Shown piece by piece: positions 26,048-32,279 of a DNA stretch of 64,000 bases. The stretch lies in sequence record OZ335963.1, one strand, 5' to 3'. Positions within the stretch are counted from its first letter, which is position 1. Each line of letters starts with the position of its first letter. The DNA is from a phage. The notes under the pieces were generated by a model. That model was not told the DNA's origin. It searched no databases and worked only from the letters and a program-made list of their open reading frames with translations. A program made the translations under genes and the position numbers.

Positions 26048-26051
26048 CAAT

Positions 26052-26080
26052 GGGGACCTTTCGGTCCCCATATTTTTATT
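26052..26080. terminator. Terminator after gene 54
   Basis: GGGGACC-TTTC-GGTCCCC then T-rich tract. Confidence 0.75.
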
Positions 26081-26366
26081 TACGGAATGAAATAAAAGCA
26101 GCAACTGAAGCAACTAAACTGTCTTCAATATAAACTTCAATTTTTACCGGAGCTTCTGACTCAAATTTACCTGTTACTACACCTTGGAAAATGCTTTCAG
26201 TCTGTTCTGGCTTTGAAAAATTTTCAGAAGGAAAAATTCCGAACTTTTTATCTGTTCCAAAAATTTTGATAAATTCATCATAAACTGCTTCATTAAAAGC
26301 GTTATCAGCAGGAATAACGCCTTCAACTACAAGTTCTTGGCCTAAAAAGCGTAAAGAAGATTTCAT
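26076..26366 (-). CDS. Hypothetical early protein (alt.-3-like position)
   Basis: 96-aa ORF with sigma70-type promoter and GAGGA Shine-Dalgarno upstream. Confidence 0.55.
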   Translation of the reverse strand: MKSSLRFLGQELVVEGVIPADNAFNEAVYDEFIKIFGTDKKFGIFPSENFSKPEQTESIFQGVVTGKFESEAPVKIEVYIEDSLVASVAAFISFRK

Positions 26367-26397: not shown

Positions 26398-26426
26398 ATT
26401 ATAACACAACACGAGGGACTTGTAAA
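26398..26426 (-). promoter_or_regulatory. Early sigma70-type promoter (TTTACA, 17 nt, TATAAT) upstream of alt.-3-like gene
   Basis: Minus strand -35 TTTACA at 26421-26426, -10 TATAAT at 26398-26403, 17-nt spacer; block duplicated at 42356-42384. Confidence 0.65.
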
Positions 26427-28484
26427 CTACATCTTGAACTTTTTAGACATTCCGTTGATGTTAACCAAAGAAGCCAAGATTTGAGAAACTTCGTTTTCCT
26501 CTTCTTTTGATTCTTCTACAAGGAATTGATTAAACCCAGCCATTGGACGAACTTCACCAGTTTCCATTAGATGATCGCCATCATATACCGATTCTTCTAA
26601 TTGTTCAGAAGGAGGAACGATTGTGCCTTCGATTAGATACTTGTTATAAGCAGTTTCTTTCATCATGTACGTGCTCACTTTATTAATCTTCAGCAAAATT
26701 CCACGCGGTAGAATAACTTCAGCTTCTGATGGAAATCCTGATAAATGACCTGGAACGATAACTTTGATTCGCTCAGCCCCTTTAATTACCATACCTACGC
26801 TAGTTTCAGCATCTTCATTAGCATATGCAGAATGACTACCCATATGCATTAAATCTTCAGCATCAACAGAACCTTCTCCTTCACCAGAAAATACTGCGCC
26901 GGAATCATCTAGAGCCATATAGTTTTTACCATGCTCACCGAAGATATTTGGTTTAAGCGATGTTGATACGAAGTTCTTAAAATAGAACATTTTATTTTCA
27001 ATATTATGACGTAAAGTTTTAAAAGTAACTTCTTGCCCACGATAAAGCGTAGTTCCTGGAGGAAGAACTGATCCTTTGGCGAACGCAGAATCCAGCGTCT
27101 CGATGTGTTTAATAGCTCGTTCCATGTATTCTTCACGGGTAGAATCTGGTTTACCCAAGAGGAACGAGTTCATTTCAACATATGAATCTGCACAATAATC
27201 TTCAATTACATCAGACTCAGCCTGAGTTAATCCTTTTGGAGTTACTTCGGTGCTTGCGTATTCATATGCCTGAGCAGCAGATTCATTAATCAATTTATAA
27301 ATGCCATTCATGACAAATTGAATAATAGCTACCTTTTCGTCTGGTGTGGCTTTAGAACCTTTAACTAAATCATTGATAATTTTCTTAATAACATCAAAGC
27401 TATTAGAAATATTAATGTCAGCGAGATCGCTCAAAATTTTATCAGTTTTATAATCAAAAAATTCTTTATTCTTTAAATATTCTTGAGAACCTTGATATGT
27501 TATATCGCTCTGCAGCTTGATAGATGGATCACGTAAACGTGCATGGGCCAATGCAATATGATTTCGGAAGCTTTCTAGTTCATAATCGTTAGATTTAAAA
27601 CGAGAAGCACTTCTCATACCACCGATAGCTCCTTTGCTGAAGTTTGAACCAATCTGAATAACGCCAGAGTTCATTGGTCCTTCTGCTTTATATACCGGAA
27701 CTTTAGATTCAAACTCTTGATATTTCTTAGCGGCGAAGCTATCACCCTGAAGTGAAGCATCAACAGTAGAATATTGAGCTTGCGCTGCTAATCGACGACT
27801 AATTTTAGTTTTCTGAATAACAGCTTGATCCGTGCGCTTATCATTTTCTAAAGCAATAGAAGCAGCAACAGCAACAGCTTTAGGGACAGCATTACCTGTT
27901 TTAACATCTACATACACATCACCAACCTTTGATTCAACTTTTGTGAATAACTCAGTTGAAATAGGAGGTACACCTGGAATGTCTTCTAAATTGGCATTTT
28001 TACGGTAAACCATAATATATGCATACTTTTTATCATAATCCCAGATTTCTTTTAAAAGAACATATCGACCTGCTCCTTTAGTACGTACTAAACGGTCAGC
28101 AATAACTTGCATTTGACGAGCTGCGCCATTTGTTTTACTTTTTAGTACGCGGAATAGGCATGCGTCAATTTTATACTGTTTCATTGTTTGAAGAGCAGTA
28201 TCAAAAACTGCATTAATGACACCAATTGGATTTCCACCCAAGTTTTTAAGCTTAACTAATGATAGTTTCTCATTAACACCTATCATTACGATATGCATCA
28301 TTTTATCGCCTGGCTTAACGTTTTTATTTGTATCACCGCCAGAGGTGTATGTACAAAATCTAAATCCAGGAAGCACGCTTTCTTCACCGGCTTGAATAGC
28401 AAAAATTTGAGGTATTTTATGCTTAGGATTTAAGTTAACAACCGGCGCCGAAGCGCCGTCAAATAATTCTGTAATAAGTTCCAT
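26427..28484 (-). CDS. Alt-like ADP-ribosyltransferase paralog
   Basis: 685-aa ORF; N-terminus MELITELFD and C-terminal ART motifs (YRGQ, FVSTSL, EAEVILPRG) shared with neighbouring alt; central region divergent. Confidence 0.85.
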   Translation of the reverse strand: MELITELFDGASAPVVNLNPKHKIPQIFAIQAGEESVLPGFRFCTYTSGGDTNKNVKPGDKMMHIVMIGVNEKLSLVKLKNLGGNPIGVINAVFDTALQTMKQYKIDACLFRVLKSKTNGAARQMQVIADRLVRTKGAGRYVLLKEIWDYDKKYAYIMVYRKNANLEDIPGVPPISTELFTKVESKVGDVYVDVKTGNAVPKAVAVAASIALENDKRTDQAVIQKTKISRRLAAQAQYSTVDASLQGDSFAAKKYQEFESKVPVYKAEGPMNSGVIQIGSNFSKGAIGGMRSASRFKSNDYELESFRNHIALAHARLRDPSIKLQSDITYQGSQEYLKNKEFFDYKTDKILSDLADINISNSFDVIKKIINDLVKGSKATPDEKVAIIQFVMNGIYKLINESAAQAYEYASTEVTPKGLTQAESDVIEDYCADSYVEMNSFLLGKPDSTREEYMERAIKHIETLDSAFAKGSVLPPGTTLYRGQEVTFKTLRHNIENKMFYFKNFVSTSLKPNIFGEHGKNYMALDDSGAVFSGEGEGSVDAEDLMHMGSHSAYANEDAETSVGMVIKGAERIKVIVPGHLSGFPSEAEVILPRGILLKINKVSTYMMKETAYNKYLIEGTIVPPSEQLEESVYDGDHLMETGEVRPMAGFNQFLVEESKEEENEVSQILASLVNINGMSKKFKM

Positions 28485-28487
28485 GAT

Positions 28488-30584
28488 TTATCCTTGAACG
28501 AACTTGTACGGCATGTTTGTAATATCTATGCAAGACGCAATAATTCCAAGAGATGATTCTACTTTTTGTTTAACATTTGATGAAACAAATGATGCAAAGT
28601 CAACTCTGTCTTCTATTTCAATATCACCTGTCATTGCAACTACTTCACCAGTTTCCATTAGACGGTCACCGTCATAAATTACTGATTCGGTGAGTTCTTC
28701 CGTAGTCATAACTTCAGCTTGAATGAGTTTTGTATTATTAGATGTTGTTCCGTCATTATTAGAAGCATCAGTTATTTTATTAACTTTGACCATCAATCCG
28801 CGTGGTAGAATAACTTCAGCTTCAGTTGCTATTCCGAGACTTCCTGGATATACAACATTAACTTTATGAGCTCCATCAATTGCCCATCCTATTTGAACTT
28901 TAACGTATTCAGGATTTTCTTTATACGCTCTTATTTCGTTTGGATTAATAGTTATTCCTTCTTCATTTTTATCAACTGTTAATTCATTGCGAGCTTCTGG
29001 TTCTAAAAGACCAATACCAGCATGTGTAATTCCAAAACGTCCAAAAATGATAGGAGTTAAAGAAGTAGATACAAAATTTCTGAAATAGAACACTTTATTT
29101 TTAACTAGTGCTTCGTATATAGGAGCAGTCATACTTTGAGCACGATAAACTGTAATGCCTTCTGGTATACGGTCACCATTTTCAAAAGCTGAATCTAAGT
29201 TATTTATAGCAGATTCAATTTCTTTTTCACTCATTACATCATATCGTTCTGGATTGTAGCGGCCTAAAAGAAGATTATTGATGTCAGTATATCCTGATCC
29301 ACAATACTCTCTAATGCCGCGCTTTTGCGATGGAGTATATTTAGAACCATCGCGTGCAATGGTAATATCAATCATTGGACCTGCACCAATTCCAGAAAAG
29401 CTATAAATCATTCGTTTGAGGAATTTAGTTTTTGCTGCGTTCCAGGAATTTTTAGTTATTTCTTCCCAGACTTCATCTGGCTGCCCTTTGCGAGTTTTAT
29501 TATGTTTATCAAGCCATTTATCTTTGTAATCTTCAAAGAATCTATTAACAGCTGCTGCGTATTTCTCTAAACATTTTATTGAAGTAGTTGGTTCATTTTT
29601 AATCGCATTAAGAATTACATCTTTAATCTTTTCAGAAACTTCATTAACCTCACTTTTTGAAAAGAATTTATAGTCATAATGAAGTTCATCTGCAGTTCCT
29701 TCGGCAATAATTTTTGCTGCCTTAGTTTTAGAAGCCAATGAATTAATTCCAAGTTTCATTTCTTCTGCTTCGGGAATTAAAGGAGCGGTAGCAGGTTTAT
29801 TGAAATTAGCTGCAGTAGATTCATACTTTTGGAATAATTCACTTTCAAATCTAGAAGATTCCAATGACTGACTTTGTGCAATTGCTCTACGGGAAATTTT
29901 AACTTTAACGATTACAGCTTGGTCAGAACGTTTATCGTTTTCTTGCGCAATAGATGCTGCAATTGCCTCATTTTTAGTTACTTGAGCTCCAGTATCTTTA
30001 TTGATATAAACATCACCGACCTTCGATTCAACTTTAGTAAAGAGCTCGGTACTAATTTCAGGAACTCCTGGGATGTCTTCTAATGATACATTTTTGCGAT
30101 GTATAAGAATATATGCATACTTTTTATCGTAATCCCAGAGTTCCTTAAGAAGGACGTATCTGCCACCTGAACGACTGCGGATAAGCCTATCAGCAATAAG
30201 TTGAATTTGACGAGCTTGACCAGCAGTTTTAGACTTAAGAATACGGAGCATACAGGCATCAATTTTATACTGACGCATCGTTTGCATTGCAACAGTAAAA
30301 ACTGAATTGATGTAATTAATTGGGCTTGGACCGAGACCTTTTAATTTAGCAATTGAACCTTTAGCAGTTAATGTAAAAGGAACAATATGCATCATTTTAT
30401 CGCCCATCTTTAAATCGCGATTAGTATCACCTCCAGATGTATAAGTACATAAACGAAAACCTGGTTGTTCAATTGCGTCATCAACATGAACTGAAAAAAT
30501 TTGCGGTATTTTCTTCTTTGGATTTAAGTTTGTAATCGGAAGAGTAGTATCTTCGTCAAATAATTCTGTAATGAGTTCCATCAT
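28488..30584 (-). CDS. alt: Alt ADP-ribosyltransferase (capsid-packaged)
   Basis: 698-aa ORF (MMELITELFDEDTTLP...); ART motifs YRAQ, FVSTSL, EAEVILPRG; TATAAATA late promoter upstream; adjacent to gene 30 as in T4. Confidence 0.88.
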   Translation of the reverse strand: MMELITELFDEDTTLPITNLNPKKKIPQIFSVHVDDAIEQPGFRLCTYTSGGDTNRDLKMGDKMMHIVPFTLTAKGSIAKLKGLGPSPINYINSVFTVAMQTMRQYKIDACMLRILKSKTAGQARQIQLIADRLIRSRSGGRYVLLKELWDYDKKYAYILIHRKNVSLEDIPGVPEISTELFTKVESKVGDVYINKDTGAQVTKNEAIAASIAQENDKRSDQAVIVKVKISRRAIAQSQSLESSRFESELFQKYESTAANFNKPATAPLIPEAEEMKLGINSLASKTKAAKIIAEGTADELHYDYKFFSKSEVNEVSEKIKDVILNAIKNEPTTSIKCLEKYAAAVNRFFEDYKDKWLDKHNKTRKGQPDEVWEEITKNSWNAAKTKFLKRMIYSFSGIGAGPMIDITIARDGSKYTPSQKRGIREYCGSGYTDINNLLLGRYNPERYDVMSEKEIESAINNLDSAFENGDRIPEGITVYRAQSMTAPIYEALVKNKVFYFRNFVSTSLTPIIFGRFGITHAGIGLLEPEARNELTVDKNEEGITINPNEIRAYKENPEYVKVQIGWAIDGAHKVNVVYPGSLGIATEAEVILPRGLMVKVNKITDASNNDGTTSNNTKLIQAEVMTTEELTESVIYDGDRLMETGEVVAMTGDIEIEDRVDFASFVSSNVKQKVESSLGIIASCIDITNMPYKFVQG

Positions 30585-30604: not shown

Positions 30605-30612
30605 TATTTATA
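30605..30612 (-). promoter_or_regulatory. Late promoter TATAAATA (minus strand) upstream of alt
   Basis: Plus-strand TATTTATA 21 nt upstream of alt ATG, followed by GAGAGGA Shine-Dalgarno. Confidence 0.6.
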
Positions 30613-30617
30613 AAATT

Positions 30618-30635
30618 AAAGGCCCGAAGGCCTTT
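30618..30635 (-). terminator. Hairpin between gene 30 block and alt late promoter
   Basis: AAAGGCC-CGAA-GGCCTTT. Confidence 0.5.
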
Positions 30636-30822
30636 AATAATCTATTGGTAAGAGAGTACGATATATTTCAAACTTTGGACCTTTTTCATAGGTATCAAAT
30701 GTTTCCGTGAATTTATTATAAGCATATGCATCTACAAATTCAATCATAATTTGTGATACAGAAGTAGAAACATCTCCACCTTCTTTTTGAGCCACGACAA
30801 TTGTTTCTAAGTAAGCTTTCAT
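30634..30822 (-). CDS. Hypothetical small protein
   Basis: 62-aa ORF between gene 30 and alt, overlapping gene 30 stop. Confidence 0.4.
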   Translation of the reverse strand: MKAYLETIVVAQKEGGDVSTSVSQIMIEFVDAYAYNKFTETFDTYEKGPKFEIYRTLLPIDY

Positions 30823-32279
30823 AGACCAGTTACCTCATGAAAATCACCAAATACATCCTCGAATGTATTAGCTTTAGTTTTATCTTCACGTAAACGAATC
30901 GCAATCGGAAGAAATAATTTAACGTAATCAGTGCGGCCATCAGATTTTAACCAACCATTACATTCGCATTCTAGAATTTTTCCAATATAATAATTTTGGT
31001 TTTCCATAATGCGAGTACGGTCAAGTTCATGCGATTTTACGCCGGCTTTATCTTTTAAGCCTGAACCAGCATTTACTTTAATTTTTCCACACTCTGATTC
31101 AAGAATAAATCCACCTGCTTTAGTAGGGTCTTTACGGTGAGGATAAATTCCTACAATTTTTAAATCAACATCAATTACTTCTTTAAATTTATAGAGATTT
31201 TTTGAACGAGCATTTTCCCATAATCCATCGATATTTTTGAGAATAATACCTTCAAGACCTTGGTCAATATACTTTTTATAAATTACCTTAGCTTCATCTA
31301 GGTTATTTACTACCTGGTTTTCAATTAAAATTACTTTATCATATCCTGATGTCATTTGTTCTAGTTTAGAAAAACGTACATCATATTTTAAACGAAACGC
31401 CGGAAGACCGTATATTTCTACCAACGGGACATAATCCCATACCTGAAACTTCATGCATTTGGCTTCTTTTTCAGAAATGGTTCCTTTTAAGGATTTATTG
31501 GCGATTCCATTAGAAGCAGTACGTGATTCAGCTACTTCGGCAAACTCTTTAGCTTTATTGATTTCAGGAGCATCAAAAAGAAAATCTAGGCCTTCTGGCT
31601 CCTTTTCAGCTTGCTCATGGTATACCAATTCGCCATCGATTAACACACCTTCTGGATGAATCTGGCGGGCTTCAGCAGTCATTTTGATTAACTCTTCCTT
31701 AAGAAGATCTAATCCTAGATATTCATTACCAGCTCGTGATAAAAGACGAACATCATCTAATTCATCGCCTCGGACTTCAGCAAAACACCGAGCTCCATCT
31801 GCTTTTAACTGTGCAAAGGCTGGAAACTTGATATTCTTATTAATGCCTTTTTCATCATAAGAACTTGCCAGCATTTGAGGTTGTTCAGGAATTAAACCTG
31901 GCCAAACTTTATTTGCGATAGATACTGAAGCACCGCATTCAAGGTCTCGCATCATAACTCGACGCAAAACTTCAACATCATCTTTTTTACCATCGGTGAT
32001 ATATCCAGTTAATTCCTCAATTGCTGCATTGCCAGTTAATTTCCGAGTAGCTAACGTGAATTCAATGAAGTCCAGCATATCAGTAATAGTCAGCATTCCA
32101 AAACTCTGGGTAGCAATACCAGGCTTAGGCCATTTCTTAATATAATACTGTAACCCACGAGAATAAGTCAGACGATACACTCGTTTAAGCAATTCATTAT
32201 CTTTATTCTTTTCAAGAATTGCTTGCTTCTGCTTAGTTGATCCGATAGATGCTATTTCATTCAGAATTTTAAGAATCAT
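30819..32279 (-). CDS. 30: ATP-dependent DNA ligase
   Basis: 486-aa ORF with adenylation motif KADGAR; matches T4 DNA ligase as remembered. Confidence 0.96.
   Translation of the reverse strand: MILKILNEIASIGSTKQKQAILEKNKDNELLKRVYRLTYSRGLQYYIKKWPKPGIATQSFGMLTITDMLDFIEFTLATRKLTGNAAIEELTGYITDGKKDDVEVLRRVMMRDLECGASVSIANKVWPGLIPEQPQMLASSYDEKGINKNIKFPAFAQLKADGARCFAEVRGDELDDVRLLSRAGNEYLGLDLLKEELIKMTAEARQIHPEGVLIDGELVYHEQAEKEPEGLDFLFDAPEINKAKEFAEVAESRTASNGIANKSLKGTISEKEAKCMKFQVWDYVPLVEIYGLPAFRLKYDVRFSKLEQMTSGYDKVILIENQVVNNLDEAKVIYKKYIDQGLEGIILKNIDGLWENARSKNLYKFKEVIDVDLKIVGIYPHRKDPTKAGGFILESECGKIKVNAGSGLKDKAGVKSHELDRTRIMENQNYYIGKILECECNGWLKSDGRTDYVKLFLPIAIRLREDKTKANTFEDVFGDFHEVTGL

Follow-up and report, generated by a model that had tools for sequence, protein, structure and literature searches.

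Alt and Alt2, tandem ADP-ribosyltransferase genes of a T4-like phage: ordinary paralogues with plausibly different host targets

A stretch of 64,000 nucleotides (nt) of phage DNA (sequence record OZ335963.1; hereafter the window) carries on its minus strand, between positions 26,427 and 30,584, two adjacent full-length genes of the T4 Alt family of ADP-ribosyltransferases (ARTs), designated here copy 1 (alt) and copy 2 (Alt2). This pair is real, functional and ordinary for the phage group to which the window belongs. With fairly good confidence, we favour an explanation in which alt and Alt2 are ancient paralogues that would be expressed together late in infection, packaged, trimmed and injected, and would probably act on partly different host targets. 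A preliminary description of this DNA, made from its letters alone, had proposed two injected ARTs of different specificity, and this interpretation was reasonable in outline but in need of corrections, which are given below.

Each of the two open reading frames (ORFs) encodes a full-length Alt-family ART whose N-terminal module is conserved and whose R-S-E set is intact, as had been suggested. Indeed, both matched PF03496 (ADPrib_exo_Tox) above the gathering score (E = 1.4e-37 for copy 1 and 3e-20 for copy 2) and aligned end to end with phrog_802, the Alt PHROG (E = 5e-272 and 5e-256, respectively); the assignment of the N-terminal domain to PF26846 (Tevenvirinae_ADPRT) was precomputed on 99%-identical proteins, the window copies themselves not having been scored. 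In a family alignment of 60 representatives taken from a library of 1.84 billion proteins, and including both window copies, the catalytic Arg, the two Ser of S-T-S and the two Glu of E-x-E were invariant throughout. These residues are R480, S505-T-S507 and E587-A-E589 in copy 1, and R482, S507-T-S509 and E587-A-E589 in copy 2, the second ORF thus retaining the whole triad. AlphaFold2 models of the copies were confident (pLDDT 82.5 and 85.0) and displayed one layout: the alpha/beta N-domain ends at residue ~240, the all-helical centre that follows reaches ~415-420, and next come the ART domain, a disordered linker and a C-terminal helix. The catalytic domain is structurally similar to the C3/VIP2-like R-S-E mono-ART fold, and a sequence search of the PDB with copy 2 returned no match at E <= 1. 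We picture each protein as comprising five parts, namely a 6-residue capsid-targeting propeptide, an alpha/beta domain of ~235 residues, a variable helical domain of ~175 residues, an ART domain that would be C3/Vis-like and arginine-specific (E-x-E), and an acidic C-terminal propeptide of 54-65 residues.

The two copies are 42% identical overall (BLASTP, E = 2e-159), with 56-75% identity over residues 1-240, 8-21% over residues 241-400, 26-48% over the ART region (401-640) except for an insert at 521-560 (12%), and ~40% over the C-terminal ~55 residues. These regional values bear out the shared ends and divergent centres noticed at the outset, and every motif quoted at that stage (KIDAC, RYVLLKE(L/I)WDYDKKYAYI, YR(A/G)Q, FVSTSL, EAEVILPRG and YDGD(R/H)LMETGE) was found. 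The last of these, however, had been placed in the ART core, where it does not belong, because it is located downstream of the LxE cleavage site (YDGDRLMETGE in copy 1, YDGDHLMETGE in copy 2), within the propeptide that T4 Alt loses.

A T4 head contains ~40 copies of Alt, a protein that undergoes cleavage and is non-essential. By mass spectrometry, gp21 was found to trim it at ITE-6 and LTE-619 (Ali et al. 2017; PMC5694885), the second cut taking off 63 C-terminal residues and giving a mature protein of 68.2 kDa (PMC5694885), which is also the mass computed for residues 7-619. Corresponding sites are kept in both window copies, the C-terminal one reading TTEELTE/SVIY at residue 632 of copy 1 and SEQLEE/SVYD at residue 631 of copy 2. 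Among the 60 Alt homologues, a P1 Glu occurs in 58 at each gp21 site (E6; E631), with L/I at P3, and S632 (copy 2 numbering) is found in 45. The predicted mature proteins would count 626 residues (70.2 kDa) for copy 1 and 625 residues (69.1 kDa) for copy 2, and the predicted loss of the C-terminal propeptide would raise the isoelectric point of ~6.0 to 8.3 in copy 1 and 7.3 in copy 2. Since both copies keep the sites used in T4 Alt, both are probably packaged and processed in the prohead; this retention is the strongest evidence to hand for such a passage, and it is indirect. By analogy with T4 Alt, we infer that each would be incorporated in the prohead core, undergo gp21 trimming at ITE-6 and LxE-~631 to ~69-70 kDa, and be injected with the DNA, ADP-ribosylating host proteins at arginine before phage gene expression.

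Both genes are under strong purifying selection. When the window was compared with RB32, Bas44 (AdolfPortmann) and vB_SsoM_113, each gene proved equal in length and devoid of internal stops in all four genomes, with dN/dS values within allele class of 0.03-0.08 (copy 1) and 0.03-0.07 (copy 2). The N-domains of the pair differ with a dS of 1.39 and a dN of 0.28, and their nucleotide identity is just 67.5%. Gene conversion was rejected as the source of the shared ends on these grounds; the dS and dN values argue for an old duplication kept by purifying selection with no recent homogenization, and alt and Alt2 would represent ancient paralogues of the T4 Alt family.

The expression signals are consistent with late synthesis of both proteins. 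The late promoter expected upstream of copy 1 was retrieved as a T4-type TATAAATA box, 21 nt before the first ATG of the copy 1 ORF (30584) and just downstream of a hairpin that is probably the terminator of upstream transcripts; the window contains 19 matches to this box, for 8.6 expected. Nolan et al. (2006) noted that a terminator upstream of alt is conserved, and the record of phage fPS-90 has a terminator annotated at the position matching this hairpin. The close junction between the genes was likewise confirmed, as it reads AAGGA-TAA-ATC-ATG, with a 3-nt gap and the Shine-Dalgarno sequence of copy 2 inside the end of copy 1, and it is kept in RB32, Bas44, vB_SsoM_113, T4 and a more distant relative. 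Between copy 1 and copy 2, no terminator was detected, and sigma-70-type promoter matches between or within the two genes showed no excess (17 versus 18.7 expected in shuffled sequence). From this lack of intervening terminator and promoter, we infer co-transcription: alt and alt2 would be transcribed late as one unit from the box at 30605-30612, upstream transcription being ended by the hairpin, and copy 2 would be translated from its own Shine-Dalgarno sequence, starting 3 nt past the copy 1 stop. A second TATAAATA is present within copy 1 (29201-29208, minus strand), ~720 nt upstream of copy 2. Kept in RB32, Bas44 and vB_SsoM_113 and absent from T4-type alt, it overlaps the A-I-N-N codons of a conserved ART helix; it may be fortuitous, arising from the coding sequence, or may serve copy 2 as an internal late promoter.

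The centres of the two proteins were initially read as fitting a swapped target-recognition module. Their divergence in sequence is confirmed, as copy 1 and copy 2 centres gave no BLASTP match at E <= 10 and a probability of 0.4% when small family profiles were compared with hhalign. A swap special to this pair, however, is not, since residues ~241-420 are poorly conserved (background level) throughout the 60 homologues and a similar pattern separates T4 Alt from copy 1. Over residues 1-240, T4 Alt is 98-100% identical to copy 1 (dS 0.15) versus 54-75% to copy 2, and the C-terminus of T4 Alt and copy 1 is 85-95% identical; within a cassette extending from ~241 to ~600, by contrast, identity between T4 Alt and copy 1 falls to 16-52% (centre) and 60-74% (ART domain), and dS is saturated. 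This difference is a cassette replacement between conserved flanks. Given such low conservation of the centre, both among the 60 homologues and between positional alleles, the combination of shared ends and divergent centre is a general trait of Alt genes.

Both centres are nevertheless predicted to be all-helical, with similar helix number, lengths and layout, and the model of copy 2 superposes on the 32%-identical SP18 Alt with TM scores of 0.70/0.77 over 653 columns; these similarities suggest that the two centres may be one fold diverged past sequence recognition, and not different modules. They also agree with an alternative that we consider possible though doubtful, in which the centre, instead of recognizing targets, is a structural part of the enzyme, such as a regulatory lid or a spacer for head packing or tail passage, that is drifting or diversifying to escape host sensors. 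Indeed, background-level conservation of the centre family-wide, the resemblance of the helices in the two models and the conserved fold suggested by the SP18 superposition would all be expected of such a part. However, the centre is constrained within allele classes (dN/dS 0.02-0.15), and its sequence therefore matters.

It is plausible that Alt and Alt2 have partly different host targets. As the centres, the inserts following S-T-S and the ARTT loops all differ, the two enzymes would probably address partly different target sets; in the ARTT loop, copy 2 alone of the pair has F584, an aromatic residue typical of the family (Y/F/H in 46 of 60 homologues) that is also missing from T4 Alt. T4 Alt modifies Arg265 of the alpha subunit of RNA polymerase (RNAP) and other proteins, and MazF is also a reported target. 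Moreover, T4 Alt helps in escaping Mokosh type I and the Alt variant of phage Bas37 is no substitute for it (preprint, 10.1101/2025.11.20.689424). That Alt variants are not interchangeable against Mokosh type I adds experimental weight to the existence of differing Alt functions.

Alternatively, the two genes could be redundant dosage duplicates, both aimed at the same targets (chiefly RNAP alpha Arg265), the second copy bringing a larger injected dose or robustness. The catalytic set, the arginine-type E-x-E motif, the N-domain and the processing motifs are indeed common to both copies, and T4 fares well with a single, non-essential Alt. We nonetheless judge this explanation unlikely, for the ART domains are only 26-48% identical, their ARTT loops and post-STS inserts differ and their centres are unalignable, while the Mokosh assay reveals a functional difference between Alt variants. 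Besides, a duplication as old as this one (dS ~1.4) with both members still at a dN/dS of ~0.04 is unexpected under pure redundancy.

The distribution of the locus was evaluated by counting INPHARED phage records in which at least 80% of the query was covered in one place, for each type separately. Of 544 records with any match to the locus, 402 displayed the copy-2-type centre and ART (all at >=90% nucleotide identity), 339 the copy-1 type and 175 the T4 type. Since 402 of the 544 records hold a copy-2-type gene, the tandem pair is the majority state in related phages (about 400 of ~540 records). As the T4-type and copy-2-type counts together exceed 544, some genomes are implied to pair a T4-type centre with Alt2; no example of this was found among the four T4-type loci inspected, all of which carry an Alt2 remnant. 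Three or more allele classes exist for the polymorphic first slot (alt), namely T4-type, T2/RB32-type and a variant at 80-90% as in phage C6; the second (Alt2) has a single class (all >=90% nucleotide identity) and varies by presence or absence. The more distant relative also displays a tandem pair, of 697 and 694 residues.

The tandem arrangement is thus already known and widely annotated. Paralogues of alt were reported by Nolan et al. (2006), one of them a full-length duplicate in 44RR; the RB32 record (2006) lists alt and alt.-2, with the remark 'similar to alt'; the BASEL phage AdolfPortmann (Bas44) has 'Alt' and 'Alt2' (bas44_0032); and RefSeq records mention 'Alt-like RNA polymerase ADP-ribosyltransferase (x2)'. 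On the function of Alt2/alt.-2, the literature searched yielded nothing past Nolan et al. (2006) and GenBank notes, and no paper tying the name Alt2 to a phage or an ART. The window itself brings no new sequence type; its value, and the interest that is left, lie in drawing attention to the function of Alt2. As a side observation, the last 176 nt of MG010123.1 (Staphylococcus phage SAJK-IND, 31997-32172) are 97.7% identical to copy 2, probably through contamination or mis-assembly in that record.

The T4 record itself agrees with the picture, in the preliminary description, of one alt gene accompanied by the small alt.-1 and alt.-2. When T4 (locus L001, 11066-11451) was compared with the window (26447-28130), alt.-1/alt.-2 proved 97% identical to nt 1-354 of copy 2, with one frameshift; the T4 remnant then joins nt 2045 of copy 2, with a 9-nt overlap at the junction, which corresponds to an internal deletion of 1,690 bp. 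Judging from this identity to the 5' end of copy 2 and from the direct join, alt.-1/alt.-2 are the leftover of an Alt2 gene from which T4 lost 1,690 bp rather recently. The T4 GenBank note, which presents them as an 'old duplication of the first part of alt', does not fit these data, which point to a recently truncated full-length paralogue. Another rearranged form was retrieved from a metagenomic phage (Logan contig SRR24155011; L003, 5001-7055), where a single chimeric alt combines a copy-1/T4-type N-domain with a copy-2 body, as expected if tandem genes recombined unequally through their conserved 5' parts; two further sequences, P0004 and P0007, resemble this chimera. It is highly improbable that copy 2 of the window is a decaying or non-functional duplicate comparable to alt.-1/alt.-2, for although T4 and T4-type phages hold the remnant only and the L003 chimera indicates a recombinationally unstable array, copy 2 is a full-length ORF and no frameshifted pseudogene, has all its catalytic residues, keeps its length without stops in four of four genomes at the low dN/dS given above, and occurs at >=90% identity in 402 records, the largest protein cluster having 772 members.

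Several points weigh against the explanation that we favour, that is, two co-expressed and co-injected enzymes with partly different targets. T4 and ~175 T4-type records manage without a full Alt2, which makes Alt2 dispensable. Copy 2 could be driven by the internal TATAAATA (29201-29208) as well. The difference in targets is deduced from sequence alone, and both copies could modify RNAP alpha Arg265. Lastly, there is no direct proof, here or in the literature searched, that Alt2 is present in virions, cleaved, injected or catalytically active.

More tentatively, the helical centre and the variable ART loops could form an exchangeable cassette that sets which host proteins are disabled, including defences such as Mokosh type I or MazF-type toxins, with the tandem giving most T-even phages a two-enzyme anti-defence kit before phage gene expression and the conserved flanks serving as recombination handles between phages and between slots. 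If so, laboratory T4 would be a natural Alt2-null, its biology under-reporting this layer. Alt is a textbook case of an enzyme injected with phage DNA, and nearly all work on it was performed with T4, which is without the second gene. Both genes are found in most sequenced relatives, among them the classical T2-like and RB phages and many candidates for therapy. Should Alt2 have targets of its own, the first seconds of a typical T-even takeover and defence evasion would involve an enzyme for which no functional study was found in the literature searched.

Concerning the genomic context, the window is a Tequatrovirus (T4-like) segment, and the 5 kb around the pair match Shigella phage ESh26, vB_SsoM_113 and many more at 98% identity. 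The minus-strand order is DNA ligase gp30 (30819-32279), alt.1, copy 1, copy 2 and alt.-3, and the baseplate genes 54 and 48, on the plus strand, converge on this alt block; synteny is as in T4 (30 > alt.1 > alt > [alt.-1/.-2] > alt.-3, then 54 and 48). The coordinates of the two ORFs first reported hold, as does the length of copy 2 (685 residues). The 698 residues attributed to copy 1 are better taken as 697, since its ORF opens with MMELITELFD and the second ATG (30581), which is the start in T4 and RB32, is better spaced from its Shine-Dalgarno sequence (GAGG, 5 nt). The features of the locus are listed in table 1.

Table 1. Features of the alt-Alt2 locus in the window and of its immediate neighbours.
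Feature	Position	Strand	Basis or remark
Copy 1 = alt, T2/RB32-type allele, 697 aa (ORF start at 30584 also possible)	28488..30581	minus	PF03496, phrog_802
Copy 1 N-terminal propeptide MELITE, capsid-targeting sequence / predicted gp21 site ITE-6	30564..30581	minus	motif; T4 Alt cleavage PMC5694885
Copy 1 N-terminal alpha/beta domain, residues 7-240, PF26846	29862..30563	minus	conservation, model
Copy 1 variable all-helical centre, residues ~241-415	29337..29861	minus	alignment, model
Copy 1 ART domain, residues ~416-632	28686..29336	minus	Pfam, model, catalytic residues
Copy 1 C-terminal acidic propeptide, 65 aa, after predicted gp21 site LTE-632	28491..28685	minus	identical to T4 LTE-619
Copy 2 = 'Alt2', alt.-2 in RB32, 685 aa	26427..28484	minus	PF03496, phrog_802
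Copy 2 N-terminal propeptide MELITE (predicted gp21 site ITE-6)	28467..28484	minus	motif
Copy 2 N-terminal alpha/beta domain, residues 7-240	27765..28466	minus	conservation, model
Copy 2 variable all-helical centre, residues ~241-420	27225..27764	minus	alignment, model
Copy 2 ART domain, residues ~421-631, ARTT loop F584	26592..27224	minus	Pfam, model, catalytic residues
Copy 2 C-terminal acidic propeptide, 54 aa, after predicted gp21 site LEE-631	26430..26591	minus	family alignment
T4-type late promoter box TATAAATA of the putative alt-alt2 unit	30605..30612	minus	same place in RB32, Bas44, vB_SsoM_113, T4, L004
Shine-Dalgarno AAGGA of copy 2, within last codons of copy 1	28491..28495	minus	junction TAA-ATC-ATG
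Hairpin AAAGGCC-UUCG-GGCCUUU after alt.1, before alt late promoter; probable terminator	30615..30638	minus	dG -14.2 kcal/mol, z = -3.3
alt.1, upstream neighbour, 62 aa, PF24647	30634..30822	minus	context only
alt.-3, downstream neighbour, 96 aa, DUF5498	26076..26366	minus	context only; own sigma-70-like promoter

On either side of the pair, some additional observations were made. Upstream, alt.1 matches the Pfam family PF24647 'Phage blade protein' (E = 6.5e-29) and overlaps the ligase stop by 4 nt. Downstream, a strong sigma-70-type promoter (TTTACA-17-TG-TATAAT, 11/12 matches; 26398-26426, minus strand) directly follows the copy 2 stop and precedes alt.-3, which is itself separated from gene 54 by a bidirectional terminator at 26050-26071; in T4, C-terminal extensions of Alt.-3 lead to escape from the CmdTAC defence system (PMC11618068). 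Beyond the window, three metagenomic proteins, P0208 (1142 aa), P0211 (485 aa) and P0219 (541 aa), associate an Alt-type N-domain with no Pfam ART match. The N-domain as a general delivery module for non-ART cargo is nonetheless poorly supported, because degenerate ART motifs can be recognized by eye in P0208 (DAEVLYP) and P0211 (NSEIVLPRG, the first Glu of E-x-E being gone), which may be inactive or re-purposed Alt relatives. Finally, in the BFVD hits I3WW50, A0A410T5F4 and A0A410T542, from the T4-like Acinetobacter phages ZZ1 and Henu6, Alt is 'split', its N- and C-terminal parts being separate ORFs.

Among known systems, the closest to copy 1 is T4 Alt (682 aa; NAD+--arginine ADP-ribosyltransferase), which occupies the same locus, is 70% identical overall, and is alike in catalytic motifs, ITE-6 and LTE sites, late promoter and junction sequence; to copy 2, by contrast, it is only 41% identical. 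The alt.-2 of RB32 and the Alt2 of the BASEL collection are the copy 2 gene itself, at 95-98% nucleotide identity, with the same length and position. T4 ModA and ModB belong, like the Alt copies, to the Alt/VIP2 R-S-E ART clade. They target host transcription and translation proteins, but they are small, early, produced after infection and unpackaged, and are devoid of N-domain, helical centre and propeptides. The C3-like, Vis, Certhrax and binary-toxin A components (VIP2, CDTa, iota Ia) share just 15-25% sequence identity with the Alt copies, and are secreted bacterial toxins rather than virion cargo, without the Alt N-domain. Conversely, the T4 internal proteins IPI-III share with Alt a short propeptide at the N-terminus that ends in (L/I)-x-E and is cut by gp21, as well as packaging in the prohead core and injection, whereas they are small, non-enzymatic and without a C-terminal propeptide.

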